Below, piece after piece: positions 14,651 to 41,556 of a stretch of 64,000 bases of DNA. The stretch is from Candidatus Omnitrophota bacterium (GTDB lineage: Bacteria > Omnitrophota > Gorgyraeia > JABMRN01 > RBG-13-46-9), in assembly GCA_013203315.1 (NCBI GenBank), contig JABMQJ010000012.1, forward strand, positions 6,402-70,401, read 5' to 3'. Every line of letters starts with the position of its first letter. The first letter of the stretch is position 1. Position numbers and translations under genes: made by a program. Below the pieces are notes generated by a model. The model saw only the letters and a list, made by a program, of their open reading frames with translations, was not told the DNA's origin and searched no databases.

Positions 14651-15405
14651 CGGCACGAATTAAGGGCGCGAAAAGAGTAATATTTTTCCTGGATTACGAC
14701 GGCACGTTAGTCCCCATCAAGAAGAGACCATCCCTCGCCAAAATTCATAAAAATACAAAAAACCTCCTTAAGAAACTGGCAAATACTCCTCCTGCAAAAA
14801 TTTTCATCATAAGCGGCCGCTCATTAAAAGACGTAAAAAAGTTGGTCGGCATAAAATCCCTCTACTATATAGGCAACCACGGCATGGAACTCGAGGGCCC
14901 ACGCTTAAAATACGTAAACAAATCAGCAAATGCTTTAAAAACTTTTATGCAAAAAAGTTGCCAAATGCTGAAAAAGAGGGTACACTTAAGAGGTGTTGTT
15001 TTAGAAGACAAGACTTACACCTTGAGTTTGCATTATAGACTGGTTGATCCGGGTAAGGTGAAGGCCCTAAAAAAAGTTTTTTTTGAAACATTAAAGCGCG
15101 CTAAAAGTGAAAAAAAGATAAAGGTTACCGAGGGCAAAAAAGTCTTAGAAGTCCGGCCGAATATAAAGTGGGATAAAGGAAAAATATTAAATCAGGTTTT
15201 AAGAGGCATGGGGCAAAAAGGCACCTTGGCTATTTGTATAGGCGATGATAAGACGGACGAAGATGCCTTTAGGGCGCTCGGGAAAAAGGGAGTAAGCATA
15301 GTCGTTTCGAGAAAGTCCAGAAAAACACGAGCGCAGTACAGGCTAAAATCTCCGAAGGAAGTTTTGAATTTATTAAAATGGTGCAGGCATGAACTGGTGG
15401 ACTAA
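14611..15405 (+). CDS. otsB: Trehalose-6-phosphate phosphatase (HAD family)
   Basis: FLDYDGTL HAD motif I, GDDKTDEDAF motif. 264 aa, immediately after otsA with a 40-nt overlap. Confidence 0.85.
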   Translation: MGGKILRRIKKDLAARIKGAKRVIFFLDYDGTLVPIKKRPSLAKIHKNTKNLLKKLANTPPAKIFIISGRSLKDVKKLVGIKSLYYIGNHGMELEGPRLKYVNKSANALKTFMQKSCQMLKKRVHLRGVVLEDKTYTLSLHYRLVDPGKVKALKKVFFETLKRAKSEKKIKVTEGKKVLEVRPNIKWDKGKILNQVLRGMGQKGTLAICIGDDKTDEDAFRALGKKGVSIVVSRKSRKTRAQYRLKSPKEVLNLLKWCRHELVD

Positions 15406-16066
15406 AAAATCATCGAATCCTTTTCAATTTTACACGAGCGTTAAGCTAAGAGAGGTAACGGGGAGAAAAGCCCGTACATTGCGGGAGCTTGTGGAAATTA
15501 TAAAAGAGGTTTCGGGCTCGGTCATATATTATCATACACACGTTTTTCTGCAGAGGCATCAGAACATTTCACCGGAACCGCCGAACGATTTCGCGTTTTG
15601 GGTGTCATCTACTTTGGGGGAGAACAAATTAAGCGAGGAATTGGCAAGCATAGATATATGCGAGTTTAGCACTATTCGTGAGCTTAGAGAAAGAATAATA
15701 AAAACAATAGAAAATCATTTATTCGAAACAAAAGAGCCCCAGAGATATGCGTTGCAGGGAAAAGAATTCGAGTTTATAAAAGCTCACAGCATTGTCATGC
15801 CTGCCGGTTTTACGGCGCATAACCTTAAAGAATTCGCGACAATCCTGGAGAAGGTTACCATTCATTCGATATATTTTCATATATTTGAGGCAAGATTAAG
15901 GCTGGAGAAAGCCGTCAATGACTTTGCATTCTGGATAGGTACTTCGGTAGGCTCTCCGGAGCTTGCAAAGATTATCGAATCGCTCGATCCTTATACGTTT
16001 ACCGGAGAGGGTTTGAGGCGGGAATTGATAAAGATCATAAACGATTGGTGTACCACGCATAAATAA
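15389..16066 (+). CDS. Hypothetical protein with an internal two-fold repeat (NDFAFW ... SL/ELA ... motif twice), embedded in the trehalose cluster
   Basis: 225 aa, no TM or signal. The halves ...YYHTHVFLQRH...NDFAFWVSSTLGENKLSEEL... and ...IYFHIFEARLR...NDFAFWIGTSVGSPELAKII... are clearly homologous. Overlaps the otsB stop by 17 nt. Confidence 0.6.
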   Translation: MNWWTKKSSNPFQFYTSVKLREVTGRKARTLRELVEIIKEVSGSVIYYHTHVFLQRHQNISPEPPNDFAFWVSSTLGENKLSEELASIDICEFSTIRELRERIIKTIENHLFETKEPQRYALQGKEFEFIKAHSIVMPAGFTAHNLKEFATILEKVTIHSIYFHIFEARLRLEKAVNDFAFWIGTSVGSPELAKIIESLDPYTFTGEGLRRELIKIINDWCTTHK

Positions 16067-16077
16067 TAGGGCCTAAA

Positions 16078-17295
16078 ATGAAAATAGCGGATTACGAGAA
16101 ATTAGTAGGTAAGGACATAATTTACGAACTGACGCTTCTTGCCAAGAAACTTAAACGAAAGAAGATACAGTGCATAAATTCCACGCGTGTTGGCGGCGGC
16201 GTCGCGGAAATACTTTCCCGGCTCATTCCTCTTTTAAACGATTTGGGAATTGACGCCACATGGGACGTGATAGCCGCGGACACCGATTATTTTAATGTAA
16301 CCAAGGCTTTTCATAATGCCTTGCACGGCAGAAAAGTCGACATCAATCAAAGCATGTTTGATAAGTTTTTGAGCACCGGGAAAAAGATTTTAAAGGATAC
16401 TAAAATATACGGCGATATCGTTTTTGTTCACGATCCGCAGCCAATGATGCTGGTAGATGCGAAGAGCAGGGGAAATAAATGGCTCTGGCGTTGCCATGTT
16501 GATGTCTCGCGGCCTTACCCGGAAGTGTGGGAATTTTTGCGCAAGTACATAGAAAAATATGACAGCTCGATATTTTCAAGCCCAAAGTTTGCCAGTAAGC
16601 TCGATATTCCGCAGTTTTTAGTGGCGCCTTCCATAGATCCTTTTAGCGAAAAAAATAGAGACCTCACTAAAACCGAAATTGACACCGCCCTTGCAAGATA
16701 CGGCATCGAAAGGGATAAGCCTATAATAACCCAGGTATCAAGATTTGATTATTTAAAGGATCCTGTCGGCGTGATAGATGCGTATAGGCTTGTTAAAAAA
16801 TATATAGATTGCCAGCTTATCTTAGCCGGAAATGAAGCCGCCGATGACCCGGAAATGGACATGGTTTATAAGGATATTATGCAGCACAAGGGCGACGACC
16901 CGGACATACATGTGCTATTAATAAAACCGGAAAATAACGACCTTGACGTAAATGCCATCCAACGCGCAAGCGCTGTGGTTATCCAGAAATCAATAAGGGA
17001 AGGATTTGCCCTTACCGTAACAGAAGCTCTTTGGAAGGAAAGGCCTGTTGTCGCCTCAGCTGTCGGAGGAATTCCGCTACAGATAAGCCACGGACATAGC
17101 GGCCTTTTATGCCACACAGTCGGAGGAGCAGCCCTCCATATAAGGGAGCTTCTTCATAGCCCCGAGTACGCCAGACAGCTTGGTAAAAACGCCAAAGAGC
17201 ATGTCCGGCGTAACTTCTTATCCACCCGCCACTTACGTGATTATATGATGCTCTTCCTCTATCTCTACAACCCCCAGGACATTATTTACCTCTAA
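16078..17295 (+). CDS. treT: GT4 glycosyltransferase resembling trehalose glycosyltransferring synthase (TreT)
   Basis: 405 aa. NSTRVGGGVAEIL, WRCHVDVS, IITQVSRFD and SIREGFALTVTEALWKERPV blocks match my recollection of archaeal/Thermotogae TreT. The assignment is from memory of motifs, not a search. Confidence 0.55.
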   Translation: MKIADYEKLVGKDIIYELTLLAKKLKRKKIQCINSTRVGGGVAEILSRLIPLLNDLGIDATWDVIAADTDYFNVTKAFHNALHGRKVDINQSMFDKFLSTGKKILKDTKIYGDIVFVHDPQPMMLVDAKSRGNKWLWRCHVDVSRPYPEVWEFLRKYIEKYDSSIFSSPKFASKLDIPQFLVAPSIDPFSEKNRDLTKTEIDTALARYGIERDKPIITQVSRFDYLKDPVGVIDAYRLVKKYIDCQLILAGNEAADDPEMDMVYKDIMQHKGDDPDIHVLLIKPENNDLDVNAIQRASAVVIQKSIREGFALTVTEALWKERPVVASAVGGIPLQISHGHSGLLCHTVGGAALHIRELLHSPEYARQLGKNAKEHVRRNFLSTRHLRDYMMLFLYLYNPQDIIYL

Positions 17296-24806: not shown

Positions 24807-24836
24807 TTCGAACACTCCTTTTTCTGCGCACAAATT

Positions 24837-24865
24837 TGACAAAAGTTAGTTCCTAATGTATACTT
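24837..24865 (+). promoter_or_regulatory. Sigma70-type promoter TTGACA-17-TATACT upstream of cheR-TPR
   Basis: ttgaca at 24837-24842, 17-nt spacer, tatact at 24860-24865. An ~85-nt AT-rich leader follows, with ttgagtt x2 and cataata x2 direct repeats. Confidence 0.55.
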
Positions 24866-24950: not shown

Positions 24951-26465
24951 ATGCCTGCAACAGTAGATATAAGAAACCAATTTAAGACTTTTGTAGCCAA
25001 CCGTGGCGGCCTATATTTTAAGGACCACGACCTAAAGAACCTCGAAAGCGCTATCTCCGCACGAATGAAATCCCGCGGAATGCATTCATTTCCCGGATAC
25101 TATGCATACCTTACAACCGCCGAAGAGAAAGAAGATGAGTTCAGAGAACTCTTAAATCTTCTAACGATAAACCACACATACTTCTTCAGGAACGAACCAC
25201 AATTCAAGGCTCTGAGGGAAAAGGTTTTGCCCAATGTGATTGAGAAAAAACGACAAGAAGCAAGCGCATCAGGCGAGGAAAAACCCGCGTTACGCATATG
25301 GAGCGCCGGTTGTGCGACAGGACAGGAGCCATATTCAATTGCAATGATAGTGCGTGATCTTATAGAAGACATAGATGATTGGGACGTACAAATACTCGCC
25401 ACTGACGCGTCCGAAAATGCATTACAGAATGCACGAAAAGGCACATATAGCCAGAACTCGGTAAAGCATGTTGATGAAACGCGCCTCGCGAGATATTTTA
25501 CAAAAGAAGGGAATACCGAGCGCGATACAAAATACCGGATACAGGAAAACATTAGAAGAATGATTAATTTTGCCTTTTTCAATCTCATGGAGGAAAGTTT
25601 CCCTACGGGTTTTGATATCATATTTTGCCGCAACGTTGTCATATATTTCGAATTTGAAACAACTGTAAAGGTTATGAATAAGCTTTATTCCGGCCTTTTA
25701 GACGGCGGTTACATGTTCATAGGCTATTCCGAAACGCTTCAATTCATGCAGGACAGGCTTCAGATGATAAGTTGGGAAGACGCGATATATTATCACAAGG
25801 CCAAAGGAAAAGCACCTGTTTATACGGAATTCGCCGAACCCCTGCCTGCTAAAGAGGAGATAGATCTAGATAAGGTCCTGGAAGAAATCTCAAAGGCAGA
25901 AGCCACCGCGAACTTAGAGGCCGAGACAAAAAAAGCGCCGCCTACTCAAAAAATAGAGAATATGCTCATTCAGATTATTAAAGCCATGCACCTAAAGCAA
26001 TACGACAAGGCCCTCTCACTTATTGAAGAAGCAAGTTCAGTGGACGATAAAGTGGTCGACCCTCATTATCTGGCGGCCGAGATTTTTATAAACCAGGGAA
26101 AAAGAGGCGAGGCAAAGACAAGGCTTTCTACCGCGCTAAAACTCGATTCGCTTTTCGCGCCGGCGCATTATCTTTATGGTTGTATATACGTGGAGGAAAG
26201 CGATCTTGATAACGCGAAAAAAAGTCTGAAAAAAGCCTTATTCATAGATAAAAATTTCTTATTGGCGCATTTTTATCTTGCTCAGGTTTTCAAAACCGAG
26301 GGACGCACAAAGGATGCGATCAGGGAATACAGAAATAGCCTGAAACTCTTGTCCGGGGCTGCGCCCGGAGATATTATAGCCTATAGCGGCGGGTTTAATG
26401 CTGCTACATTCATGAGTGTTTGCAGGGATAATCTGGAAAGACTAAAAATAGAATACGGAGATTAA
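24951..26465 (+). CDS. CheR-type protein-glutamate O-methyltransferase fused to C-terminal TPR repeats
   Basis: CheR N-terminal helical domain. SAM-binding RIWSAGCATGQEPYSIA. Residues ~330-504 form TPR helices (LAAEIFINQGKRGEA, YLYGCIYVEESDLDNA, HFYLAQVFKTEGRTKDA). Confidence 0.85.
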   Translation: MPATVDIRNQFKTFVANRGGLYFKDHDLKNLESAISARMKSRGMHSFPGYYAYLTTAEEKEDEFRELLNLLTINHTYFFRNEPQFKALREKVLPNVIEKKRQEASASGEEKPALRIWSAGCATGQEPYSIAMIVRDLIEDIDDWDVQILATDASENALQNARKGTYSQNSVKHVDETRLARYFTKEGNTERDTKYRIQENIRRMINFAFFNLMEESFPTGFDIIFCRNVVIYFEFETTVKVMNKLYSGLLDGGYMFIGYSETLQFMQDRLQMISWEDAIYYHKAKGKAPVYTEFAEPLPAKEEIDLDKVLEEISKAEATANLEAETKKAPPTQKIENMLIQIIKAMHLKQYDKALSLIEEASSVDDKVVDPHYLAAEIFINQGKRGEAKTRLSTALKLDSLFAPAHYLYGCIYVEESDLDNAKKSLKKALFIDKNFLLAHFYLAQVFKTEGRTKDAIREYRNSLKLLSGAAPGDIIAYSGGFNAATFMSVCRDNLERLKIEYGD

Positions 26466-26467
26466 TT

Positions 26468-26647
26468 ATGAAACTAACAGTATTTACTCTGAAAGATAAG
26501 GAATACGGAGTTGACATGATGGTAACGGCTTCAGCCGACGCAGTGGACGCAGTAAAGGCAAGAAAAATGGGCGCGGACGATTATTACGCAAAGACGAGCG
26601 ACTTATCCATTTTAGTCAAAGCTATAAAAAAAATAACTGAAATATAA
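26468..26647 (+). pseudogene. 59-aa ORF matching only the C-terminal half (beta4-alpha5) of a receiver domain. Truncated REC remnant or non-phosphorylatable fragment.
   Basis: VDMMVTASADAVDAVKARKMGADDYYAKTSDLSILVKAIKKI aligns to VIIFTAKPE...AGADDYILKPFD...KIEKLL of the downstream CheY-like genes. The N-terminal DD and phospho-Asp region is absent. Too short for the ORF track. Confidence 0.45.
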
Positions 26648-26661
26648 AAAAACACTTAAAT

Positions 26662-29600
26662 ATGGAAAAGCAAATCAAACATAAGACTAGCTTGAGGCGA
26701 AAAATCGCGTTTCTTATTGTATTTTCCTGTCTTATCGTTATGCTTACAGGTTTTGGGTTGGGGTATTTATGGGGATTCAATTTGTTGCGTACTACAATAG
26801 GCGAAAGCCATGTCAGCATGGCCGATTTAATTTCAGAATCTGTTAGCAGAATTCTCAACGAAGAAGTCTCGGATCTTCACATATACATGTCGCTTCCGTT
26901 ACGCAGGGGCATGATTGAAAAGCAAAATCTCAAATATAGAGGAATGAATGAAGAGGCCGTTAGCAGATATTTTAAAGATATGGACGAAAAGTGGAAAGGG
27001 ACACAAAAAGACAATCCTTTGATCGAAGAATTGTTAGCGACAGAAACCAGCAACAGGTTGAAAAGCTTAGTAGCCGGAGATGCCGGTATTGCAGAAATTT
27101 TCATGACTGATGTGCAAGGAGGGTTAGTCGCTTCCTCAAACAAAACAAGCGATTTTTACCAGGCAGACGAAATCTGGTGGCAAAAAGCTTTTAACAACGG
27201 AAAGGGCGCTGACTTTATCGGGGATGCAGAACTTGATACGTCGTCTAATGTAATAAGCATAAGCTTAGCCGTCCCCATAAGAGGCGATTCAGGAGAAGTG
27301 ATAGGTGCCTGCAAGGCTGTCATGGATGTGAACCGTTTGTTTGAGCCCTTAAAAGATTTTGTTATCGGAAAAACAGGTCATGCAGTGTTGATTAACAAAA
27401 AAGGCGTTATCATTTTTCAAGAGGACATCACACCTTTAAGCCAAAGCCTAACAAGCGAAGAAAATTTGCAAAAAATATTAGAAACCCCAAAAGGGTGGAT
27501 AATTACAAGCAAACCTAACGAGCATAACAAAAAAACATTTATTGCGTTCACGGCAAGCAATTACTCTCTCTTTTTGCGAGAAGGGATACTGTGGAAGGTA
27601 TGCGTAGGCCAAAATGCCGATGAAGTGTTTGCGCCATTGAATACTTTAATGTTTCAGCTTTTTATAGTTGTCATTCTTGCCGCCGCAATTCTTGTTTTGG
27701 CTAGTGCGGTGTTTAGTGCAGCGTTCATTAAGCCGCTAATTGAGCTTCGCAATGCTACGGAGAAAATCGCGAAGGGTGATTTAGACTACCATATAGAAGT
27801 AAAAACGGGCGACGAAATCGAAGAATTTGCCGATTTTTTCAACCGGATGACTGACGAGTTAAAAAAATCTACTAGATCCGTCAGTGCGCTAAATAAAGAA
27901 ATCACCGAGCGTAAGAAAGTAGAATATGCACTTAAAGAAAGCGAGGAAAGATATAGAGTGCTGTACGATTCCTCGCGCGATGCCATTATGACATTGATGC
28001 CCGGGGGGAAATTTTTAAGCGGCAATCCTGCTACATTAGAAATGTTTGGGTGCAAGGATGAAAAAGAATTTATTTCTAAAACCCCAGCTGATTTATCACC
28101 GGAATATCAACCCGATGGGGAACTTTCTAGCGTAAGAGCGAAGCAGATGATGGACATGGCAATGGAAAAAGGTTCGCACTTTTTTGAATGGACGCATAAG
28201 AACGTAGGCGGAAAGAATTTTTTCGCTACAGTATTATTGACCCGAATGAAAATGGGAAATAAAGAATTTTTGCAAGCGACAGTCCGTGATATTTCCGTGT
28301 CTAAGAATATAGAGACTAAAGTAAGGCAAGCAGCAGAAGAATGGCAGCGCACATTTGATTCGATAGCGGATTTGGTATTTATTCAGGATACGAATTTCGT
28401 TATACTGAAAGCAAACAGGGCGTTTGCCGAAGCGATTAAAATGAAACCCGAAGACATTATCGGCAAAAAATGTTATGATTTATTGCATGGTCGGGATAAG
28501 CCATGGCCAAACTGTCCGTTTGAAAAAACAAAACACGACTCGAAGGCCCACACCGAAGAGGTGGACGACCCAAATATTGGCCTACCACTTTCGGTTTCAA
28601 CTTCGCCGATATTTGACAAAAAAGGTAAATTGGTGGGCAGCGTGCATATTGCCCAGGACATAAGAGCCAGAAAGAAAGCAGAGAAAGTCTTTCAGGACAC
28701 AAAAGACGAATTGGAAAAACAGACCTGGGGGCTCAGAAAAAGCAACGAAGCCATCAAGTCTCTCTATAAAGAGTTGGAGGGAAGCAATAAAGAACTCCAG
28801 AAGTTGGACCAATTAAAATCCGATTTCGTGTCAACCGTTTCACACGAATTACGCACGCCGCTATCTATAACTAAAGAAGGCATATCCTTGGTCCTGGATA
28901 GGGTAACCGGTGATATTAGCGGAAAACAGGAAAAAATACTCTCTACGGCAAGGGATAACATAGATCGCTTAGCTCGAATAATAAATGACCTACTTGATAT
29001 ATCCAAAATCGAAGCAGGCAAGGTCGATTTGAAAAAAGCCCTCGTGGATCTTTCAGGTAAGATAAAGGACGACTGCACATTATGGAAAATAGATGCGGAT
29101 AAAAAAAATCAAACCTTACAAATTTCCGTGCCGGATTCCCCGGTTAGCATTTATGTTGATCCTGACAAGATGGACCAAATTCTTCTTAATCTCGTATCGA
29201 ATGCCGTAAAATATACCCCTGATAAAGGAAAAATAAAGGTTGAGTTAAAAGATAAAGAAGGCGAGGTAGAGGTTTCTATTTCCGATACAGGCGTTGGCAT
29301 TGCCAAGGAGGATTTTCATAAGTTATTCGGTAAATTTCAACAGTTCAGCAGGGCCATAGGCCCAGGGGCAAAAGGCACGGGGCTTGGCCTTGCCATTGTT
29401 AAGCAGCTTGTTGAAATGCACAAGGGTAACATACGCGTTGAAAGCGAGCTCCACAAAGGTAGCAAATTTATCTTTTCTATTCCCAAGCTGGATGTTGAAG
29501 AGGTGTTTAGGGAATATATTAGTAGCGGGATAAAACAGGCAGCCGATAGAAAAACGCATCTTTCACTTCTTATTGTGCACGTGGTGAATTTCAAGCAAAT

Positions 29601-29910
29601 TTTTGAAGAGCTGGGCTATGATAAGGCGCACGCTTTACTTAAGGACATTGCGAAAGAGACAAAGGGATCGCTGCGTCGCCGTGCGGATAGCGTGGTAAGA
29701 GATACGGGCGATCTTATTGTGCTTCTATTCGATACGCGCAAGGAAGATGTGGCGGTTGTGAGGAAGAGGGTTGAAAAAACAATTAGCGATTATCTATCCG
29801 GCGGCAAAGAAAAATTTCTTAAAAATATCAGCATAACTTTCGGTAACGCAACATATCCCGATGAGGCAATCACTGATGAGGAATTACTAAAAAAGGCAAG
29901 ACCCGCGTAA
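26662..29910 (+). CDS. Multi-sensor histidine kinase: TM-periplasmic Cache-like domain-TM-HAMP-3 PAS-HisKA-HATPase_c, plus a C-terminal degenerate GGDEF domain with a preserved RxxD I-site
   Basis: 1082 aa. Two TM segments flank a ~280-aa extracytoplasmic domain, followed by HAMP (GDLDYHIEVKTGDEIEEFADFFNRM). H-box SHELRTPLS, G-box GTGLGLAIVKQL. The tail LSLLIVHVVNFKQIFEELGYDKAHALL...RRRADSVVRDTGDLIVLLFDT aligns to [27 protein letters not shown]...[21 protein letters not shown] of the downstream GGDEF protein. GGDEF is replaced by DTGDL but RxxD is kept. No receiver domain. Confidence 0.85.
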   Translation: MEKQIKHKTSLRRKIAFLIVFSCLIVMLTGFGLGYLWGFNLLRTTIGESHVSMADLISESVSRILNEEVSDLHIYMSLPLRRGMIEKQNLKYRGMNEEAVSRYFKDMDEKWKGTQKDNPLIEELLATETSNRLKSLVAGDAGIAEIFMTDVQGGLVASSNKTSDFYQADEIWWQKAFNNGKGADFIGDAELDTSSNVISISLAVPIRGDSGEVIGACKAVMDVNRLFEPLKDFVIGKTGHAVLINKKGVIIFQEDITPLSQSLTSEENLQKILETPKGWIITSKPNEHNKKTFIAFTASNYSLFLREGILWKVCVGQNADEVFAPLNTLMFQLFIVVILAAAILVLASAVFSAAFIKPLIELRNATEKIAKGDLDYHIEVKTGDEIEEFADFFNRMTDELKKSTRSVSALNKEITERKKVEYALKESEERYRVLYDSSRDAIMTLMPGGKFLSGNPATLEMFGCKDEKEFISKTPADLSPEYQPDGELSSVRAKQMMDMAMEKGSHFFEWTHKNVGGKNFFATVLLTRMKMGNKEFLQATVRDISVSKNIETKVRQAAEEWQRTFDSIADLVFIQDTNFVILKANRAFAEAIKMKPEDIIGKKCYDLLHGRDKPWPNCPFEKTKHDSKAHTEEVDDPNIGLPLSVSTSPIFDKKGKLVGSVHIAQDIRARKKAEKVFQDTKDELEKQTWGLRKSNEAIKSLYKELEGSNKELQKLDQLKSDFVSTVSHELRTPLSITKEGISLVLDRVTGDISGKQEKILSTARDNIDRLARIINDLLDISKIEAGKVDLKKALVDLSGKIKDDCTLWKIDADKKNQTLQISVPDSPVSIYVDPDKMDQILLNLVSNAVKYTPDKGKIKVELKDKEGEVEVSISDTGVGIAKEDFHKLFGKFQQFSRAIGPGAKGTGLGLAIVKQLVEMHKGNIRVESELHKGSKFIFSIPKLDVEEVFREYISSGIKQAADRKTHLSLLIVHVVNFKQIFEELGYDKAHALLKDIAKETKGSLRRRADSVVRDTGDLIVLLFDTRKEDVAVVRKRVEKTISDYLSGGKEKFLKNISITFGNATYPDEAITDEELLKKARPA

Positions 29911-29937: not shown

Positions 29938-30312
29938 GTGGCAAAGATGAAAATACTACTTGTTGACGATGAGCCAATGTTTATCGAAATAATGAAAACA
30001 AGGCTGGAGGCCGACGGCTGCGAGGTAATTACCGCTTCCGACGGAAAACAGGCGCTTGACAGGATAGCGCAAGACAAACCTGATGCGGTTTTGCTGGATA
30101 TTCTTATGCCCGTATTGGACGGGATGTCTGCGCTTGAAATGATAAGAAAGAAGGATAAAGAATTACCCGTATACATGCTGACTGCTTTCTCGACCGAAGA
30201 TAGAATTAAAGAGGCAAAAAGGGCCGGCGCTTCCGGGTTCCTTGTTAAAGACGGTGAGTTGAAAGAAGAAATTGGCGGTATAGTAGATCAATTAAAGAAA
30301 AATAAATCCTAA
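29938..30312 (+). CDS. CheY-like single-domain response regulator (1 of 4 tandem paralogs)
   Basis: GTG start. KILLVDDEP, LLDILMPVLDG, phospho-acceptor Asp, T and K positions conserved. 124 aa. Confidence 0.85.
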   Translation: MAKMKILLVDDEPMFIEIMKTRLEADGCEVITASDGKQALDRIAQDKPDAVLLDILMPVLDGMSALEMIRKKDKELPVYMLTAFSTEDRIKEAKRAGASGFLVKDGELKEEIGGIVDQLKKNKS

Positions 30313-30330
30313 CATGAAAAAGGAGGGTGC

Positions 30331-30714
30331 ATGAATAAGAAGAAAATCCTGATAATAGACGATGAAGTGGACCTGGTTGATTTAGTCAAGATGAGGCTTG
30401 AGGTGGCGAACTATTATGTGTTACCGCTTTATACGAGTACGCGCAGCCTCGAGATAGCGAAAAGAGAAAAACCCGACCTGGTTCTTCTGGATGTAATGAT
30501 GCCGGATAAAAACGGGTATGAGGTCTGCAAGGAGCTAAAAGCCGACGAGGCAACGCGCCATATCCCCGTAATTATATTTACCGCAAAACCTGAACAGAAA
30601 GAACGCATTAAAAAAGACGCTGAATTGGCCGGAGCCGATGACTACATCTTGAAACCTTTTGACCCGGCGGATTTAACTAAAAAGATCGAAAAACTCCTAA
30701 AAAAGGGGGTGTAA
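30331..30714 (+). CDS. CheY-like single-domain response regulator (2 of 4)
   Basis: ILIIDDEVDLV, LLDVMMPDKNGYEV, IPVIIFTAK, GADDYILKPF. 127 aa. Confidence 0.85.
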   Translation: MNKKKILIIDDEVDLVDLVKMRLEVANYYVLPLYTSTRSLEIAKREKPDLVLLDVMMPDKNGYEVCKELKADEATRHIPVIIFTAKPEQKERIKKDAELAGADDYILKPFDPADLTKKIEKLLKKGV

Positions 30715-30715
30715 A

Positions 30716-31093
30716 ATGAGTAAGAAAAGAATATTAGTCATTGATGATGAGTTGGAATTAGTGGCCATGCTAAAAATCAGGCTGGAAGCAAATAACTACG
30801 AGGTTGTTACAGCAGGTGACGGCGAAGAGGGTATGGAAAAGGCTAAAACCGAAAAGCCGGACTTAATCATTCTGGACATCATGATGCCTAAAAAAGACGG
30901 CTACACATTTATTAAGGAAATGAGAACCGAGCAAGGTATAAAAAGTACGCCTGTTATCATACTTACCGCTAAGGCGAAAATGCAGGATTTGTTTGCAATC
31001 GAAGGCGCGAAAGATTACATTGTAAAGCCTTTCGAAGCTACGGAACTCCTGGAGAAGATAGCAAGATATTTTAAGAATACAGGAAGCGAGTAA
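30716..31093 (+). CDS. CheY-like single-domain response regulator (3 of 4)
   Basis: ILVIDDELELV, ILDIMMPKKDGY, PVIILTAK, KDYIVKPF. 125 aa. Start 2 nt after the upstream stop. Confidence 0.85.
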   Translation: MSKKRILVIDDELELVAMLKIRLEANNYEVVTAGDGEEGMEKAKTEKPDLIILDIMMPKKDGYTFIKEMRTEQGIKSTPVIILTAKAKMQDLFAIEGAKDYIVKPFEATELLEKIARYFKNTGSE

Positions 31094-31104
31094 AGAACCG
31101 GAGG

Positions 31105-31485
31105 GTGAAAATGCCTGATAAAAAGAGGATCTTAATAGTCGACGACGAAATGCAATTGGTGGAAATGGTAAAGATACGCCTCGAGGCTAACGGCTACGAA
31201 ACTTTAGCAGCTTATGACGGCCAGACAGGGCTGAATATGGCAAAAAAAGAAAAACCCGATTTAATCATATTGGATTTGATGATGCCCAAAATGGACGGAT
31301 ATAAAGTTTGTGCCCTTTTGAAAAGAGATTCCAGATACTCAAAAATTCCCGTACTGATATTTACGGCAAAGGCGCAGGAAGAAGACGCAAAAATGAGCGA
31401 AGAAGCCGGTGCTGACGCATACCTTGTCAAACCCTTTGAACCGGAGGCACTACTAGGCAAAATAAGCGGATTATTGAAGGAGTGA
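31105..31485 (+). CDS. CheY-like single-domain response regulator (4 of 4)
   Basis: ILIVDDEMQLV, ILDLMMPKMDGY, PVLIFTAK, ADAYLVKPF. 126 aa. Stop overlaps the start region of pilB. Confidence 0.85.
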   Translation: MKMPDKKRILIVDDEMQLVEMVKIRLEANGYETLAAYDGQTGLNMAKKEKPDLIILDLMMPKMDGYKVCALLKRDSRYSKIPVLIFTAKAQEEDAKMSEEAGADAYLVKPFEPEALLGKISGLLKE

Positions 31486-31487
31486 AC

Positions 31488-33182
31488 ATGGCAAAAAAGC
31501 AGAAAAAGTCCCTCGGTGAGAGCCTCGTGGACGAAGGTATCATAACTCAGGATCAGCTGAAACAGGCGCAGGCAGAAGAGAAGCGCGTGGGTCAGCGTTT
31601 ACGTAAAGTGCTTGTTAAGATGGGGTTGATTGACGAAGGGGATCTCGTATCTTTTTTAAGCGACAAGTTGGGTGTGCCCAGGATAGAGCTTGGTAATTAT
31701 TTGATTGACGCGAAGATAATTGATTTGGTGCCCGAGGCGCTGGCCAGAAAACACGAACTTATTCCTGTATTTAAAATTGGGGATCGCCTTACGTGCGCGA
31801 TGCTTGATCCATGGAACATATTTGCGCTTGATGAGGTAAGAATGAAAACGCATTTAACGGTTGAGCCTGCTGTGGCGACAGAAGGCGAGATAAAGAAGGC
31901 CCTTAATCAATATTACAGCGCAAGGGGCAACATGGAAGACCTTATAAAAACTTTAGACCAAAAAGACCTGGGATTAGGAGAGGGTAAAGAAATCGACGCT
32001 AAAAAGCTACAGGGAATAGTGGAGGAGCCCATAGTAATAAGGCTTGTTAACATGATTATTTCAAAGGCCGTGCAGGAAAGGGCCAGTGACATTCACATTG
32101 AACCGGAAGAGAGCGTTCTTAAAACGCGATACAGGGTAGACGGCATGCTGCATGAAGCGCCGTCTCCGCCCAAGCACCTTCAATCTGCGGTGATATCGAG
32201 AATTAAAATAATGGCGGATCTCGATATTGCTGAAAGAAGGAAACCGCAGGATGGGCGTTTCAGCATTAAAATGGAAGGTAAACAGATAGATGTTCGCGTA
32301 TCCTGTATCCCCACCATATACGGAGAAAACGTTGTTTTGCGGCTTCTGGATACTTCGAGCACGCTTATTAGCTTGAAAGACATGGGATTCTCTAAAGAAG
32401 TGCTGGAAAAATACGAGAAGCTTGTCACGAGGCCGCATGGAATAATTCTTGTTACCGGGCCTACCGGAAGCGGAAAAACTACGACACTCTACGCCTCGCT
32501 CGATAAAATAAACACGGTGGAGAAAAATATCATAACAATTGAGGACCCGGTTGAATACAAGCTCGAAGGGATAAGGCAGACCCAGGTAAACCCCAAGGTT
32601 GACCTTACGTTTGCCAACGGACTCCGCTCTATACTGCGGCAAGATCCGGACATAATAATGGTAGGTGAAATGAGGGACTTCGAGACAGCTGAGATTGCAA
32701 TTCAGGCGGCGTTAACGGGCCACCTTGTTTTCTCAACGCTTCACACCAATGACGCCCCGGGCGCGGTGACACGAATGATCGATATGCGAGTCGAGACATT
32801 TCTTGTATCGTCTTCGGTAATTGGCGTGTTGGCCCAGAGGCTTGTAAGAACAATATGCCTTGCGTGCAAGGAAAAATATCAGCCGACAAAAGAAGAGTTG
32901 AAAGATATAGGGCTCACGGGTGATGAGAAAATAGATTTCTATAGAGGCAAGGGTTGCGATAAATGCATGAAAACAGGCTACAAGGGTAGAATCGGTATTT
33001 TTGAACTTATGATGGTGGATGACGAGATAAAGAACTTAATCATTGCGAAAACAACAGCCGAGGAGATTAGGAAAAATGCCCTTTCAAAAGGAATGATATC
33101 ATTGCAGGACGACGGAATCGAGAAAATAAAACAAGGACGTACAACAGTAGAGGAAGTTCTGCGCGTAACCCAGGAGGAATAA
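31488..33182 (+). CDS. pilB: Type IV pilus assembly ATPase (PilB/GspE family) with N-terminal T2SSE_N domain
   Basis: ATG at 31488 after a GAAGGA SD. Walker A GPTGSGKTTT, Asp/His boxes, tetracysteine CLAC...CDKC. N-terminal ~150 aa is a GSPII_E_N-like domain. Confidence 0.9.
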   Translation: MAKKQKKSLGESLVDEGIITQDQLKQAQAEEKRVGQRLRKVLVKMGLIDEGDLVSFLSDKLGVPRIELGNYLIDAKIIDLVPEALARKHELIPVFKIGDRLTCAMLDPWNIFALDEVRMKTHLTVEPAVATEGEIKKALNQYYSARGNMEDLIKTLDQKDLGLGEGKEIDAKKLQGIVEEPIVIRLVNMIISKAVQERASDIHIEPEESVLKTRYRVDGMLHEAPSPPKHLQSAVISRIKIMADLDIAERRKPQDGRFSIKMEGKQIDVRVSCIPTIYGENVVLRLLDTSSTLISLKDMGFSKEVLEKYEKLVTRPHGIILVTGPTGSGKTTTLYASLDKINTVEKNIITIEDPVEYKLEGIRQTQVNPKVDLTFANGLRSILRQDPDIIMVGEMRDFETAEIAIQAALTGHLVFSTLHTNDAPGAVTRMIDMRVETFLVSSSVIGVLAQRLVRTICLACKEKYQPTKEELKDIGLTGDEKIDFYRGKGCDKCMKTGYKGRIGIFELMMVDDEIKNLIIAKTTAEEIRKNALSKGMISLQDDGIEKIKQGRTTVEEVLRVTQEE

Positions 33183-34402
33183 TGCCTATATATACGTACA
33201 AAGCCCGAGACACGATGGGCAAATCAGTGCGAGGCAAGATGGAGGTTGATACCAAAGCCGAACTTATCGATAGGCTGCACAAAATGGGCTATATGACGAC
33301 GCAGGTGACAGAGGCCCGTTCCACCGGTGACCTTAACATCGAAACCCTACTCGACAAGATAAGACCCGTAGGCACTGAGCACATGCTCATGTTTTATGTT
33401 CAGCTTTCAAATATGATCAGCGCCGGTATACCTATTTTAACCTGTTTAGATACGCTCAGTAATCAGATTGAAAATAAGAAATTGAAAGACGCTGTTGGTA
33501 GTATTGCCAGAAGCGTCGGCGGAGGGGAAAGCCTTTCAAAGGCATTCAGGGACCAGCCCCGGGTATTCCCGCAACTCTTTTCCAATATGGTAAAAGCCGG
33601 AGAAGTCAGCGGAAAACTGGATACAGTATCGGTAAAATTTGCCGAATATTTCGAACACCAGGAAGACCTGCGCCAAAAAATAAGGAGCGCGCTTTTCTAC
33701 CCCATGATACTTTTGGTGGCAGGCGTAGCCGTTATGCTTTTTATAGTAACCTTTATCATACCGCTGTTTGCCCAGATTTTTGCAAAAAGCGGCATAGCCT
33801 TACCGGCCCCGACACTCCTGCTTTTAAAAATTGGCCTTTCAATTAAGCATTTCTGGTATTTAGGCATTCTGGCTTTCGTCGGATGTTTTTTAGTGGTTAA
33901 ATTTTACATAAATACTGAAATTGGACGGCTTAATTTCGATAAACTAAAATTGAAAATACCCATAATCGGATCGTTGCATCGCAGGGCAGCGCTCGCCAGC
34001 TTTACAAGGACCCTGGGGACCCTTACAGATAGCGGGGTTCCTATTCTCGAATCCCTGGATATCACAAAGTCAGTAATGGGAAACGAGGTGCTGTCCCGTG
34101 TTATTGCCAACGCGCGTAGCGCGGTTGAAAAAGGGGAGAAATTATCCGGGCCGCTTAAGATAAGCGAAGAGTTTCCGCCTGATGCTGTCCAGATGATTTC
34201 AGTAGGAGAGGAAACAGGTAATCTGGATACAATGCTGAATAAGGTCGCGGATTTTTATGACATGTCAGTGGGGTACTCCATAAAAAAACTGACAACCGTG
34301 ATTGAGCCCCTGTTTTTAGTTATCATGGGTAGCCTTATAGGATTTATCATGATCTCCATACTTTTGCCGATGTTTGACATGATAAAGGTTATTAAGCATT
34401 AG
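33182..34402 (+). CDS. pilC: Type IV pilus inner-membrane platform protein (PilC/GspF family)
   Basis: 406 aa. Two GspF repeats with 3 TM. Start overlaps the pilB stop (ATGA-type). Confidence 0.9.
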   Translation: MPIYTYKARDTMGKSVRGKMEVDTKAELIDRLHKMGYMTTQVTEARSTGDLNIETLLDKIRPVGTEHMLMFYVQLSNMISAGIPILTCLDTLSNQIENKKLKDAVGSIARSVGGGESLSKAFRDQPRVFPQLFSNMVKAGEVSGKLDTVSVKFAEYFEHQEDLRQKIRSALFYPMILLVAGVAVMLFIVTFIIPLFAQIFAKSGIALPAPTLLLLKIGLSIKHFWYLGILAFVGCFLVVKFYINTEIGRLNFDKLKLKIPIIGSLHRRAALASFTRTLGTLTDSGVPILESLDITKSVMGNEVLSRVIANARSAVEKGEKLSGPLKISEEFPPDAVQMISVGEETGNLDTMLNKVADFYDMSVGYSIKKLTTVIEPLFLVIMGSLIGFIMISILLPMFDMIKVIKH

Positions 34403-34411
34403 AAAGAGGGG

Positions 34412-34630
34412 GTGGCGAAAATGGAAGTATTTCTAGGTATTGCTTCAATATTTTTTCTTATTTTTGGCGCGATGCTTTTGCTTTCACCGAATATCGTTGA
34501 ACGAATTTCCAAAGCGACAAATAAGGTGCTTTTTAATCTGGATGACAAAATACAGTCTACGAGAAGACCCCTGGGAATTCTGCTATTGGCAATATCGATT
34601 TTTTTATGGTATACTGCGCTACATAAGTAA
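34412..34630 (+). CDS. Small 2-TM membrane protein (72 aa) between pilC and the major pilin
   Basis: Strong SD AGAGGGGG immediately upstream. Two hydrophobic helices (FLGIASIFFLIFGAMLLL, LGILLLAISIFLWY). Function unknown. Confidence 0.4.
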   Translation: MAKMEVFLGIASIFFLIFGAMLLLSPNIVERISKATNKVLFNLDDKIQSTRRPLGILLLAISIFLWYTALHK

Positions 34631-34645
34631 AAAAGGAGGCCAGGG

Positions 34646-35104
34646 ATGATGAAGAAGAAAGGTTTTACACTGATTGAGCTTTTAATTGTGATAGCGGTTA
34701 TTTCTATCCTGATTGGTATCGCGCTTCCGCGTTTCAGGGGCATGCAGGAAGAGGGTTTGGTTGCGCAGGCCAAGGGAGAGTTAAGGACGCTCCAAACAGC
34801 CATAGAAAGTTACTATATCCACAATAGCAGCGCCTATCCGACAGATAGTGCTACCTGGCAATCAGATACAGATAGCCTTACCACTGCTACCCCGCTAATA
34901 GTAGGTACGGCTTTAATTGATCCGTTTTCCAGTGCAGGGGCGCAATATCAGCTGGTGTATGATACAAATACGGCTTATTATGCTATGTATTCAGTGGGTC
35001 CGGGCGGCACCGGGAGCGTTACCGCAGTTAGCACTGCCGGCGGTGTTACTGATACACCCAACTGCATTTATGTTTCGAACGGAGAAAGAGACACGACGCC
35101 ATAA
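34646..35104 (+). CDS. Type IV pilin, candidate major pilin (class III signal peptide, N-methylation motif)
   Basis: MMKKKG|FTLIELLIVIAVISILIGIALP with Glu at +5. 152 aa. Confidence 0.8.
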   Translation: MMKKKGFTLIELLIVIAVISILIGIALPRFRGMQEEGLVAQAKGELRTLQTAIESYYIHNSSAYPTDSATWQSDTDSLTTATPLIVGTALIDPFSSAGAQYQLVYDTNTAYYAMYSVGPGGTGSVTAVSTAGGVTDTPNCIYVSNGERDTTP

Positions 35105-35478: not shown

Positions 35479-35997
35479 ATGAAAAAGGGAATCACGTTAA
35501 TCGAGCTTATTATTAGCGTAACTCTTTTTTTAATACTTGGTAGCGTTGTTCTTTGGGTTTTTGTAGTGGGTTTAAGATCTTGGGATTCGGGTCTGAATAG
35601 GGCTAACATACGCCAGAGTGTCAATGTAGCGCTTGAGAGGATGACGCGGGAGCTCGGCCAGGCAAGCGAGGTTACTCAAGCCAAAGCCGGTAACATTACG
35701 TTTCAGGCAGATTTAGACGAGAATGGCACCGTGGAAACCATAACGTTTGATGTTACAAATGCCGATAACCTGGAGCGCACCGAGAGTGGCCGAGACATTC
35801 TTATGGTTAGCAATGTGCAAGACTTTACACTGGGTTATTATCTGGAATCGGGCAATGACACTCTTTTAAGCTCTGTTAATTCTCCTGCTAACCGGGATAC
35901 TATACGGGTTGTTGTTATATCAATTACCGTAAGCGAAGGTGACGAAACGCTTACATTTAGCACAAGCGCTTATACACGAAATCAGTCAAATGATTAA
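35479..35997 (+). CDS. Minor (pseudo)pilin with prepilin-type N-terminus
   Basis: MKKG|ITLIELIISVTLFLILGSVV, E at +5. 172 aa. Confidence 0.75.
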   Translation: MKKGITLIELIISVTLFLILGSVVLWVFVVGLRSWDSGLNRANIRQSVNVALERMTRELGQASEVTQAKAGNITFQADLDENGTVETITFDVTNADNLERTESGRDILMVSNVQDFTLGYYLESGNDTLLSSVNSPANRDTIRVVVISITVSEGDETLTFSTSAYTRNQSND

Positions 35998-36790
35998 AAG
36001 AGAAAAAGGCGCGATTTTAATAATGGTTTTTGTTGTTATGGTTGCTCTAAGCGGTGTGGCATTTGCTTTTTTGACAATGATTAGCCAGGAGACAAAGAGT
36101 GCGGGAACGGGACTCCTAAATATGCAAGCATTTTATATAGCGGAAGCAGGCCGCGCAAAGGCGAGGTGGGCACTTACTACAGACGGGCAAACTGCCGGTG
36201 TCTGGGGTGAATCCGATACTTCCCTGGGAGAGGGGACGTATAACGTTACTACTGTTGATAATGGTGATGGTACAATCACTATTACATCAGATGGGTATAT
36301 CCCCGATGACACCAGTCCACTCATAATGAGAAGGGTTTTAGAGAAAGATATAACTACGGTTTCCGGTTCATCTAATAATCTTGCTTTAGACGCCATAGCC
36401 TCGGATTCATCTACATTTGGCGGTAATGTTGCCGCAAATGCCAACGACGACAATAGTTCTACGAGATGGCGCTCAGGTGTTAATGGCAATTCGCAGCTTC
36501 AATTAGATTTTGGAAGCGCAACAGAATTCGATAAGGTTGTGTTTGACGAAAGGCAATTTAGTTCATATGCAGTGCAATATTCAAGTAATGCTAGCACGTG
36601 GAATTCGGTGACTGGTGCGACTACAACAGTAGCCGGAAATGTGACTACGGTTACTTTTGATGGGGTTACAGTCAGATATGTGAGACTTGACATTAATGGT
36701 AATAGACCGTCGGTATATGAATTTGAAACATATCTAACAACTGCAACAGGCATCGGGCTCGAAAGAGGCGAATTCGCTACTTCCTGGTAG
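35990..36790 (+). CDS. PilX-like minor pilin fused to a C-terminal F5/8 type C (discoidin/CBM32-like) carbohydrate-binding domain
   Basis: ATG 35990 (ATGATTAA overlap with the upstream stop). N-terminus MIKREKG|AILIMVFVVMVALSGVAFAFL lacks E+5, typical of PilX/minor pilins. Residues ~130-265 (ASDSSTFGGNVAANANDDNSSTRWRS...QLQLDFGSATEFDKVVFDE...YAVQYSSNASTWNSV...VRYVRLDINGN...YEFETY) match the discoidin/CBM32 pattern (N-x-T-R-W, LDLG, RYVRL, aromatic-E-aromatic-E). Confidence 0.7.
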   Translation: MIKREKGAILIMVFVVMVALSGVAFAFLTMISQETKSAGTGLLNMQAFYIAEAGRAKARWALTTDGQTAGVWGESDTSLGEGTYNVTTVDNGDGTITITSDGYIPDDTSPLIMRRVLEKDITTVSGSSNNLALDAIASDSSTFGGNVAANANDDNSSTRWRSGVNGNSQLQLDFGSATEFDKVVFDERQFSSYAVQYSSNASTWNSVTGATTTVAGNVTTVTFDGVTVRYVRLDINGNRPSVYEFETYLTTATGIGLERGEFATSW

Positions 36791-40686: not shown

Positions 40687-41556
40687 GTGGAAAAGAAGAA
40701 AATATTAATTATCGAGGATGACGAAGACTTACTAGAAGTTCTGCAAGTGAGGCTCTCCAGCCAGGGATACGAAGTTCATACGAATATAGGTAAGAGGGAA
40801 GTTCTCCGGGAGATACGAAGCATATGGCCGGATCTTATTCTTCTTGATATAACATTGCCTGAAATAAGCGGCCTGGAAATAAAAGCGGAATTAAATAAAA
40901 ATACTCATACCGCCAGCATTCCTGTAATATTTTTAACCGGCAAAGACTCGGTTTCCGATAAGGTGAAAGGCCTTGGGCTCGGCGCGGACGATTATATAGC
41001 GAAGCCATTTGACTCAAAGGAGCTGATGTCTCGGATTGAGGCCGCGCTAAGACGGAGAGGTTTTTACGAAGAGATTTCCATGACTGACGGCCTTACGGGG
41101 GTGTATAATGTGAAATTTTTTCAAAAACAGATTACATTATTTTTTAATATAGCCAAAAGATATAAAAAGATATTTGCGCTTATAATCATTGATATCGATA
41201 ATCTGAAAGACATAAATGATACATACGGGCACCTGGCAGGCGATTTTATTTTGAAAGAATTTTCTTCATTAACTAAAAAGACATTGAGAAAATCTGATAT
41301 ACTTGCAAGATACGGAGGAGATGAGTTCGCCATTATTATGCCTGAGACTGACGAAGAGCATGCCGCTTACGCGATTGACAGGTTAAAGCAGAACATAAAC
41401 GGAAAGCCGTTTGTATTCGGGGATAAAAAACAGGAGTTAAGATTTAACATTAGCGTTGGTATGACGACCTACAGGGACACGCTAACAAGCGAGCTCGAAA
41501 TGTTCGGGGAAGCCGACAAAAAGCTCTATCGGGATAAGCATAAAGCGAGTAAATAA
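40687..41556 (+). CDS. Response regulator-diguanylate cyclase (REC-GGDEF, PleD/WspR-like). Intact GGDEF and RxxD I-site.
   Basis: GTG start. Receiver [13 protein letters not shown]...[11 protein letters not shown]. GGDEF domain with [13 protein letters not shown] and I-site RKSD. 289 aa. Confidence 0.9.
   Translation: [289 protein letters not shown]

Follow-up and report, generated by a model that had tools for sequence, protein, structure and literature searches.

The 64-kb window (the whole 64,000-nucleotide stretch of DNA from an uncultured Omnitrophota bacterium that was analysed) carries a run of signalling and pilus genes that begins with a CheR methyltransferase gene fused to TPR repeats (cheR-TPR), continues with a 59-codon open reading frame (ORF) and leads into sensor kinase, receiver and pilus genes. 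All features lie on the forward strand:

24836..24864, + strand: sigma-70-like promoter, TTGACA-17-TATACT, 11/12 matches (consensus scan)
24951..26465, + strand: cheR-TPR, 504 aa (Pfam, PDB matches, conserved-column comparison, orthologs)
26468..26515, + strand: codons 1-16 of the 59-codon ORF, assigned to the start of a putative ancestral first cheW (CheW alignments)
26513..26521, + strand: putative deletion junction, GAC ATG ATG, where the alignments switch partner from CheW-derived to REC-derived
26516..26647, + strand: codons 17-59 plus stop, assigned to the beta4-alpha5 C-terminal third of a receiver, REC_b (Pfam, alignments, tblastn)
26662..29910, + strand: sensor histidine kinase, 1082 aa (Pfam)
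29938..31485, + strand: four tandem single-domain receiver genes (Pfam; the same genes occur in the sister locus L010)
31482..34402, + strand: PilB (MshEN plus T2SSE ATPase) and PilC, then pilin, PilMN and PilO genes (Pfam)

The initial annotation described the first gene as a full CheR fused to TPR repeats, and Pfam, PDB and the catalytic motifs all agree with that description. Pfam assigns residues 10-56 to CheR_N, residues 74-275 to a SAM-dependent methyltransferase domain and residues ~347-466 to TPRs. The CheR domain (PF01739) is matched at 198 bits (E 1.3e-58; cut-off 27) and CheR_N (PF03705) at 24.2 bits, slightly below its cut-off of 27, so that the 504-aa protein carries both parts of the profile of a CheR protein-glutamate O-methyltransferase; the solved CheR structures 5xly, 5ftw, 1af7 and 1bc5 match residues 11-282 with E-values of 1e-29 to 1e-33. 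Its C-terminal repeats (TPR_2, TPR_19, TPR_8 and TPR_11 in Pfam at residues 347-466, with TPR matches in the PDB too) place it in the CheR-TPR subfamily. The catalytic Arg and Tyr of Salmonella CheR are R98 and Y235 (PMC3447774). In the window protein the motifs are FFRN (R80, in HTYFFRN) and VIYF (Y232, in CRNVVIYF), which align with P. aeruginosa CheR1; both residues fall in columns that are at least 93% conserved across 120 homologs, and the protein deviates at neither. Overall it deviates at 4 of 102 family-conserved columns (family median 2, maximum 12); one of these four deviations is common to its closest intact-cluster relative and another is also present in the active P. aeruginosa CheR1. 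The promoter-like site sits in the 144-nt gap 5' of cheR-TPR and probably serves the whole downstream operon.

Upon tblastn searching with queries from an intact relative, no CheW, MCP, CheA core or CheB was detected in the 64 kb, where the same search returned only generic REC and HATPase similarity; the earlier statement that no MCP, CheA, CheW or CheB gene lies near cheR is borne out over that whole length. A comparison of the CheR-TPR protein with a genome-contig collection that excluded this metagenome-assembled genome and its close relatives gave one match, in a distant Planctomycetaceae. The HAMP-containing histidine kinase that had been reported directly downstream of the CheR locus is likewise recovered by Pfam, with the domain order dCache-HAMP-PAS-PAS-HisKA-HATPase and a degenerate GGDEF domain that has 'TGDLI' in place of GGDEF at the C-terminus. 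The PilB/PilC and pilus genes that follow probably encode the machinery through which the signalling module exerts its output, and the HK-REC-PilB-PilC order is conserved in L010, L022 and L023. The kinase/pilus module appears to work without CheR, since the 10 kb upstream of the kinases of L022 and L023 contain no Che genes. Among the kinase orthologs inspected, L020-L023 and L030 have no Che genes upstream, and in L031 a Che cluster lies downstream.

The short ORF between cheR-TPR and the kinase is a chimera. The cheR stop TAA (26463-26465) is followed by 'tt' and then by the ATG at 26468, and the ORF ends at 26647; it was originally taken to encode only the beta4-alpha5 half of a receiver. 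Its position 2 nt after the stop and its receiver half hold up, but residues 1-17 belong to CheW. The first 16 codons retain the cheW start codon, its inherited ribosome-binding-site context and the first beta-strand. Of residues 1-17, 14 are identical to residues 1-17 of the CheW of L014, the head also aligns against five CheW N-termini, and the DNA is colinear with the cheR end and cheW start of L014 as far as GGAGTTGACAT. With only the first 16-17 CheW residues left, the mini-ORF has no PF01584 match and falls short of a complete CheW-like domain (~140 aa).

The remainder of the ORF derives from REC_b, the putative ancestral stand-alone receiver, which bears the signature ADDYxAKTSD and in intact clusters is encoded ahead of the sensor kinase. 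Residues 17-54 correspond to positions 74-111 of the 111 positions of Pfam Response_reg (E 2.8e-4). At 21.4 bits this match lies under the gathering cut-off of 30.2; it is real rather than a chance match, because residues 17-56 are identical at 28 of 40 positions (70%, E 1e-18) to residues 80-119 of L028 REC_b, an intact 127-aa receiver that served as reference, and the fragment is also matched in tblastn with residues 80-119 of L017 REC_b. The alignment places beta1-beta3, the Asp pocket, the conserved Thr and the DTLL phospho-acceptor region outside the fragment, which is therefore no PF00072 receiver with a complete (beta-alpha)5 fold, acidic pair, Asp, Thr/Ser and Lys. An origin as a copy of a downstream receiver was rejected, as identity to the window's own RECs is at most 37%. 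The same C-terminal signature also occurs in P0002 (locus L013), a REC of 100 aa on a short contig of 935 bp, with in-frame stops before the DD pair and a different downstream gene. Lacking a phospho-acceptor Asp, an acidic pocket and a CheW fold, the 59-aa chimera reads as a scar, not as a signalling protein.

To place this scar, we compared the window with five orthologous Omnitrophota loci (L014, L016, L017-19, L028 and L029), whose CheR-TPR proteins are 55-73% identical to that of the window. In 5/5 of them cheW stands directly after cheR-TPR and is followed by a second cheW and mcp. All three that are long enough (L017, L028 and L029) share the order cheR-TPR, cheW, cheW, mcp, cheA-REC, REC, cheB, REC, sensor kinase, and cheA in the intact loci encodes an Hpt-dim-HATPase-CheW-REC hybrid. 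The search for an intact REC at this position, suggested in the initial annotation, thus succeeded: the same three loci carry one directly upstream of the sensor kinase. [quoted passage not shown] 2012). Because MCP, CheW, CheA and a response regulator are found together in all five orthologous loci and not in the window, the window is a broken remnant of a CheR-TPR/ACF-type cluster and not a working member.

We consider it about 90% probable that the lone CheR-TPR and the mini-gene are the remains of a ~6.2-kb deletion in a chemotaxis-like cluster. The ancestor would have carried a Wsp/Frz-type operon, an ACF pathway with CheR-TPR, in the order cheR-TPR, cheW, cheW, mcp, cheA-REC, REC, cheB, REC, kinase, receivers, type IV pilus genes. 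A single in-frame deletion would have brought codon 16/17 of the first cheW up against codon ~79 in the last receiver, removing most of cheW, the second cheW, mcp, cheA-REC, REC, cheB and the first two thirds of the stand-alone REC, and leaving an intact, orphaned cheR-TPR and a 59-codon CheW/REC chimeric ORF. The DNA is colinear with the cheR end and cheW start before the junction and with the 3' end of REC_b after it, and the span equivalent to the deletion measures 6217-6272 nt in the intact loci. The earlier notion of a relic of rearrangement survives in this form; its specific scenarios of a CheR-TPR-REC or REC-HK fusion do not, as the deletion would have joined cheW to a stand-alone REC. 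The make-up of the scar, the gene order of the relatives, the recurrence of the junction across assemblies and the loss of cheR in the sister lineage are direct observations. We infer the direction and number of deletion events, and the ancestral state of the locus is reconstructed rather than observed, because the closest intact-cluster relative found has 73% CheR identity. A search anchored on the kinase for a closer intact-cluster relative returned only L010 (80% aa identity), which is itself further degraded, and orthologs that are at most 54% identical.

Also against the deletion model, the L017 kinase after REC_b is only 26% identical to the window kinase, in the C-terminal half, and the kinases after REC_b in intact loci do not look like clear orthologs of it. 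Since, in addition, L031 has a related kinase upstream of its Che cluster, gene order here varies across the phylum. On the deletion reading, the 1082-aa kinase is the gene after the Che cluster, untouched by the deletion. The possibility that its dCache-HAMP part had been captured from the deleted MCP was rejected, as the similarity to the L014 MCP is only at HAMP level (32% over 120 aa). The chimera keeps the start of cheW and the stop of REC, so translation would continue to the start of the kinase, which lies 14 nt beyond the chimera; this kept translation toward the kinase may be the reason why the in-frame deletion survived.

Two other explanations of the junction fare badly. The data are metagenome-assembled and represent one clonal population, and a collapsed or chimeric contig could in principle have created it. 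An identical 501-nt sequence across the junction occurs, however, in five independent assemblies (n=5) from two pipelines (JGI 3300032608 and 3300032738; Logan SRR28106066, SRR28106059 and SRR28106056), no repeat is present that would promote collapse, and in three further samples a related species carries, at this place, a deletion that is larger and not the same; an assembly artefact is almost certainly not the cause. The CheW-like head and REC-like tail also follow the domain order of CheV, as if a single CheW-REC fusion gene had lost its middle. This is extremely unlikely, and we rejected it: in the orthologous loci CheW is a stand-alone protein (156-160 aa) encoded directly after cheR, the REC is another stand-alone protein (119-127 aa) encoded ~6 kb downstream, and no CheV was seen in any orthologous locus inspected.

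The related species is represented by the sister locus L010, which is 86.9% identical to the window in nucleotide sequence and keeps the kinase (80% aa identity, after a shorter scar), the four receivers and the pilus genes. Of cheR-TPR it has only an in-frame remnant of 58 codons, made up of 28 CheR codons joined to the final 30 codons of REC; nothing is left of the CheW-derived head, and CheR scraps stand in its place. The same promoter-like sequence lies upstream of this remnant. In the shared REC part, the substitutions between L010 and the window are all non-synonymous and the conserved Gly of GADDY is lost. The two loci together are a snapshot of operon decay, with step 1 in the window lineage and step 2 in the sister lineage.

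The comparison with L010 also bears on the proposal that the ORF encodes a deliberately truncated, non-phosphorylatable fragment, or more generally a functional receiver-like peptide acting as a modulator of the kinase or receivers downstream. Several features would suit such a peptide: the ORF is in frame with a Shine-Dalgarno-like GGAG ~10 nt upstream, its sequence is identical in all assemblies, all three junctions observed (one in the window, two in L010) are in frame, and positions 26573-26700, covering the 3' portion of the fragment as well as the leader of the kinase, are unusually conserved, with runs of 53 and 67 nt identical to L010 against the mean identity given above. This conservation spans the intergenic spacer into the kinase start, however, and fits a translation-initiation or leader constraint better; an RNA element is not indicated, as 26560-26700 has a folding z of +0.87 and no Rfam match. 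Only three similar proteins were found in 5.8 billion, none of them a conserved family of this length, and a receiver fold is impossible without the missing strands, pocket and Thr. The L010 scar, with its head deleted and its GADDY Gly replaced, speaks against deliberate truncation, and we regard a functional peptide as very unlikely.

The methyltransferase itself is an orphan left by deletion. Its original substrate was most likely the deleted MCP, which largely settles the puzzle raised in the initial annotation over whether CheR methylates the kinase, pilins or something else: the cognate MCP would have been encoded in the deleted segment. If the genome holds no other MCP, CheR would now be redundant and heading for loss. 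A further point against the model is that the gene has no signs of decay, with a full ORF and intact catalytic residues; its intactness is equally compatible with a recent deletion and with continued selection for a substrate elsewhere. Strain variation from which a dN/dS for CheR might be derived is lacking in this clonal population, whose only 7 mismatches all lie at a contig end.

It is possible, if unlikely, that the orphan is retained by selection to methylate a substrate other than the deleted MCP, a view that concerns the present role of CheR only and is compatible with the deletion. Candidates would be an MCP of a second system elsewhere or, more exotically, the adjacent HAMP kinase or another protein. 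CheR enzymes can serve receptors encoded elsewhere in multi-MCP genomes, cheR-TPR still comes first after a strong promoter-like site, and its conservation profile, R80 and Y232 included, is near normal. Against retention, L010 has lost cheR-TPR yet keeps the kinase, receivers and pilus genes, other Omnitrophota kinase orthologs have no CheR nearby, and no result of this analysis indicates a non-MCP substrate; moreover, a CheR-TPR gene typically serves just its own ACF cluster, and a genome has one such gene (PMC3447774). The stronger combination, in which CheR-TPR is kept for a non-canonical target (the dCache-HAMP kinase or another receptor) and the in-frame scars are selected for translation of the kinase/pilus operon, strikes us as quite improbable.

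The reconstructed cluster resembles two known systems. The ACF-class Wsp system of Pseudomonas comprises WspA (MCP), WspB and WspD (CheW), WspC (CheR-TPR), WspE (CheA-REC), WspF (CheB) and WspR (REC-GGDEF). By its parts list, the ancestral cluster matches it with one MCP, two CheW, CheR-TPR, a hybrid CheA-CheW-REC and CheB, and GGDEF proteins are nearby in the window: the C-terminal GGDEF domain of the kinase and, 14 kb away at 40687-41556, a REC-GGDEF protein with an intact RYGGDEF motif. The Omnitrophota order differs in starting with cheR-TPR, in having two or three extra single-domain receivers and in leading to a Cache/PAS kinase and type IV pilus genes instead of WspR; in the window the core is deleted and only the WspC-like gene is left. 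The Frz system of Myxococcus xanthus, with FrzF (CheR-TPR), FrzA and FrzB (CheW-like), FrzCD (MCP), FrzE (CheA-REC) and FrzG (CheB), controls pilus- and gliding-based motility. TPR repeats attached to its CheR tune receptor methylation (PMC2535941), and it has two CheW-like proteins (PMC6952110). CheR-TPR, the paired CheW-like proteins, the hybrid CheA-REC and the association with type IV pilus motility are shared, and in two of the relatives, L017 and L029, the gene immediately before cheR-TPR encodes a PilB-REC fusion. The differences from Frz are the absence of a FrzZ-type dual receiver, the different phylum, the MCPs of the relatives, which are membrane-bound (dCache, 4HB or CHASE3 sensors) or lack any recognised sensor domain, and the destruction of the system in the window. 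Like other deletion scars, chimeric pseudogene ORFs and orphan chemotaxis genes of bacterial genomes, the window's scar joins the beginning of one gene to the end of a second and strands an accessory gene. It is unusual in two respects only: all three observed junctions are in frame, and the translational start/stop context of the operon is retained.

In summary, the apparent anomaly of a receptor-less CheR beside a kinase and half a receiver disappears: the locus reflects ordinary gene-cluster decay, not a new signalling design or architecture. Both the process and the Wsp/Frz-like kind of system are known, and the locus illustrates them at good resolution. For annotation, the lesson is that an orphan CheR-TPR gene or a REC fragment below threshold calls for comparison with orthologous loci before it is taken for a novel module. 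A conserved Wsp/Frz-like CheR-TPR cluster is present in many Omnitrophota, where it neighbours genes for sensor kinases, receivers and type IV pili, and it may merit study as a pilus regulator.

Almost all coding in the window lies on the + strand. The initial annotation was accurate here in both coordinates and content: an intact CheR-TPR gene, backed by Pfam and PDB matches, a short ORF two bases further on and then a HAMP kinase.

Features around the CheR-TPR gene, 5' to 3' (domains from Pfam)
Upstream of cheR-TPR: small kinase, protein without assigned function, aspartyl protease, then a 144-nt gap
24836-24864: predicted sigma-70-like promoter in that gap, near-consensus TTGACA-17-TATACT
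24951-26465, + strand: cheR-TPR, 504 aa; CheR_N, CheR methyltransferase, C-terminal TPR repeats
26463-26465, + strand: cheR-TPR stop codon TAA, two bases before the mini-ORF
26468-26647, + strand: mini-ORF, 59 codons; protein MKLTVFTLKDKEYGVDMMVTASADAVDAVKARKMGADDYYAKTSDLSILVKAIKKITEI
From 14 bases past the mini-ORF, + strand: 1082-aa kinase, dCache-HAMP-PAS-PAS-HisKA-HATPase-GGDEF
Downstream of the kinase, in order: four single-domain receivers, PilB (MshEN + T2SSE), PilC, pilins, PilMN, PilO
After PilO: GAF kinase and REC-GGDEF

The SAM-dependent methyltransferase domain of the 504-aa protein is recovered at E 1.3e-58, and the solved CheR structures of P. aeruginosa, B. subtilis and Salmonella match it at E 1e-29 to 1e-33. 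Residues 17-54 of the mini-ORF align with positions 74-111 of the 111-position receiver profile (E 2.8e-4, sub-threshold alone). NCBI lists both products as "hypothetical protein" (HQ549_03010 for CheR-TPR, HQ549_03015 for the 59-aa protein; 'Candidatus Omnitrophica bacterium' MAG). Identical proteins in the same gene neighbourhood are present on contigs from at least five samples that were assembled separately (JGI 3300032608 and 3300032738; Logan SRR28106066, SRR28106059 and SRR28106056). The junction is real and not an artefact, since the 501 nt over 26300-26800 are identical in all five assemblies; the sampled population is essentially clonal.

Because mini-ORF residues 1-17 resemble the first CheW strand, we fetched orthologous loci via CheR-TPR homologs, which are abundant in Omnitrophota. 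In each of L014, L016, L017-L019, L028 and L029 (CheR identity to the window 73%, 63%, 59%, 57% and 55%, respectively), cheR-TPR is directly followed by a 156-160-aa cheW, then by another cheW and an mcp. Three of these loci extend far enough to reveal the onward order, and all continue with a hybrid cheA (Hpt, dimerisation, HATPase, CheW, REC), a single-domain REC, a cheB (REC + methylesterase) and REC_b, a stand-alone receiver of 119-127 aa that precedes a large sensor kinase and further receivers. An intact REC, which the initial annotation had proposed looking for, thus stands before the kinase in these loci.

The mini-ORF joins the two ends of this cluster. In protein alignments, its residues 1-17 match L014 CheW residues 1-17 at 14 of 17 positions, and residues 17-56, which contain the REC_b-specific signature ADDYxAKTSD, match L028 REC_b residues 80-119 at 28 of 40 (E 1e-18). 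The DNA of the window runs colinearly with the end of cheR and the start of cheW in L014 as far as ...GGAGTTGACAT, past which it turns to the REC_b 3' end (...ATGATG...); the equivalent span in intact loci is 6217-6272 nt. A tblastn search with all L017 Che proteins found no CheW, MCP, CheA core or CheB in the 64-kb window. By these comparisons the 59-codon ORF is the scar of a ~6.2-kb deletion, because its head is a cheW start, its tail is a REC_b end, the two lie ~6.2 kb apart in relatives and the core Che genes are gone. The deletion took most of cheW1, all of cheW2, mcp, cheA, a REC and cheB, and REC_b up to its last third. The proposal that the fragment is the relic of a CheR-TPR-REC or REC-HK rearrangement was correct as to the kind of event, though not in its details; the alternative of a deliberately truncated receiver found no support. 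A copy of one of the window's own receivers is ruled out by identities of at most 37%. A receiver homolog of 100 aa in L013 (1-935) shares the fragment's ADDYCAKTSD tail; in-frame stop codons directly precede its DD pair, and the next gene encodes a multi-pass membrane protein, not the kinase.

Relatives of the mini-ORF in a 5.8-billion-sequence database comprise only this 100-aa receiver of L013, whose contig is very short, and P0003, a 58-aa ORF in the sister-lineage locus L010, which was found in three samples. The DNA of L010 and the window is 86.9% identical. Both loci have the aspartyl protease upstream, and downstream L010 likewise has the kinase (80% aa identity), the four receivers, PilB, PilC and pilins; cheR-TPR has gone from it. 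P0003 consists of CheR residues 1-14, CheR residues ~47-60 and the final ~30 residues of the REC fragment; L010 has no counterpart of window positions ~24993-25091 and ~25135-26543. L010 may have lost everything independently of the window deletion, but both carry Tyr in place of the Cys of ADDYC, a motif otherwise invariant, which weakly favours a shared first step, with L010 inheriting the 6.2-kb deletion and then decaying to a second stage. Between pilC and the first pilin the two loci differ by an indel (window 34405-34657, ~250 nt; L010 8951-9048, ~100 nt), and the window's gap holds a called 69-codon ORF. The four tandem single-domain receiver genes between kinase and pilB (window 29938-31485) are kept in L010; three such genes occur in L023.

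The orphan cheR-TPR gene shows no visible degradation. The protein departs at 4 of the 102 columns on which at least 93% of 120 homologs agree (S122A, E125Q, V205I and F270L; family median 2, maximum 12); its closest intact-cluster relative also has S122A, and active P. aeruginosa CheR1 likewise has Q at position 125. The protein retains the counterparts of the catalytic residues R98 and Y235 in Salmonella CheR (PMC3447774). Either a recent deletion or ongoing use with a receptor encoded at another site would account for this state; that the enzyme still has a physiological substrate seems rather doubtful. The kinase or pilins had been named as possible methylation targets; a novel target of this kind found no support, and the CheR-free loci argue against it: the kinase/receiver/pilus module persists in L010, and in L020-L023 and L030 the more distant kinase orthologs (40-54% identity) lack Che genes within reach upstream, with a bare HK-REC-PilB-PilC arrangement in L022 and L023. 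Retention for a non-canonical substrate, together with in-frame scars selected for operon expression, is quite improbable. In another Omnitrophota contig, L031 (7004-14446), cheR-TPR-cheW-cheW-mcp is preceded by a related dCache kinase and a receiver, so kinase and Che cluster are recurrent neighbours in variable order.

The chimera retains the cheW ribosome-binding context (GGAG ~10 nt before ATG) and, 14 nt ahead of the kinase start, the stop codon of REC_b; the gap between REC_b and the kinase in intact loci is 0-50 nt, or the two genes overlap. All three deletion junctions seen (window 26513-26521; L010 ~1045 and ~1088) are in frame, against a chance expectation of ~1/27. Of the five longest identical runs in the 7.9-kb L010 alignment, two (53 and 67 nt, at an average identity of 86.9%) fall in the fragment tail, spacer and kinase start (26573-26700, versus L010 1118-1245). 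Folding gave no RNA structure in this interval (z +0.87) and no Rfam family matched it; its conservation may reflect a translation-initiation or leader constraint. Deletions that keep translation up to the kinase start would avoid polarity on the kinase/pilus operon, and it is a reasonable reading that these would be the survivors. The in-frame junctions hint that only such deletions survive.

CheR-TPR fusions are known mostly from "alternative cellular function" chemosensory clusters, such as WspC of Pseudomonas and FrzF of Myxococcus (PMC3447774, PMC2535941). The Omnitrophota cluster reconstructed from relatives shares their parts (one MCP, two CheW, CheR-TPR, hybrid CheA-REC and CheB), the two CheW recalling FrzA and FrzB (PMC6952110), and is Wsp/Frz-like by this parts list. 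What sets it apart from those systems is a different gene order, additional single-domain receivers and the genes around it: a Cache/PAS sensor kinase whose GGDEF domain is degenerate, and type IV pilus genes. The window itself is not a working member of that class, because the core genes are absent. The kinase's C-terminal domain is probably not a cyclase, judging by 'TGDLI' at the motif ('VRDTGDLIVLL', window 29500-29907); the L028 kinase after the Che cluster has the same HisKA-HATPase-GGDEF layout. Trehalose genes (OtsA-like GT20, trehalose phosphatase, DUF5752, TreT) lie at window 13181-17295, and a DUF5752-TreT pair also adjoins a related kinase/PilN/PilO cluster in L030 (13437-15354). 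A PilX_N pilin-like protein with an F5/8 type C (discoidin) carbohydrate-binding domain (window 35939-36790) may be an adhesive minor pilin.

The initial observation is confirmed; what it describes is an ordinary deletion scar, resolved very cleanly, within a system of a known kind. The window PilB contains MshEN, a known c-di-GMP receptor module (PMC5013675). In L017 (7782-9974) and L029 (7819-9972), PilB (MshEN + T2SSE) is fused to a C-terminal receiver directly upstream of cheR-TPR, an unusual direct link of phosphorelay to pilus motor; the window PilB (31482-33182) has no receiver and is preceded by the four stand-alone ones. Gene context suggests that the intact Che system regulates pili.
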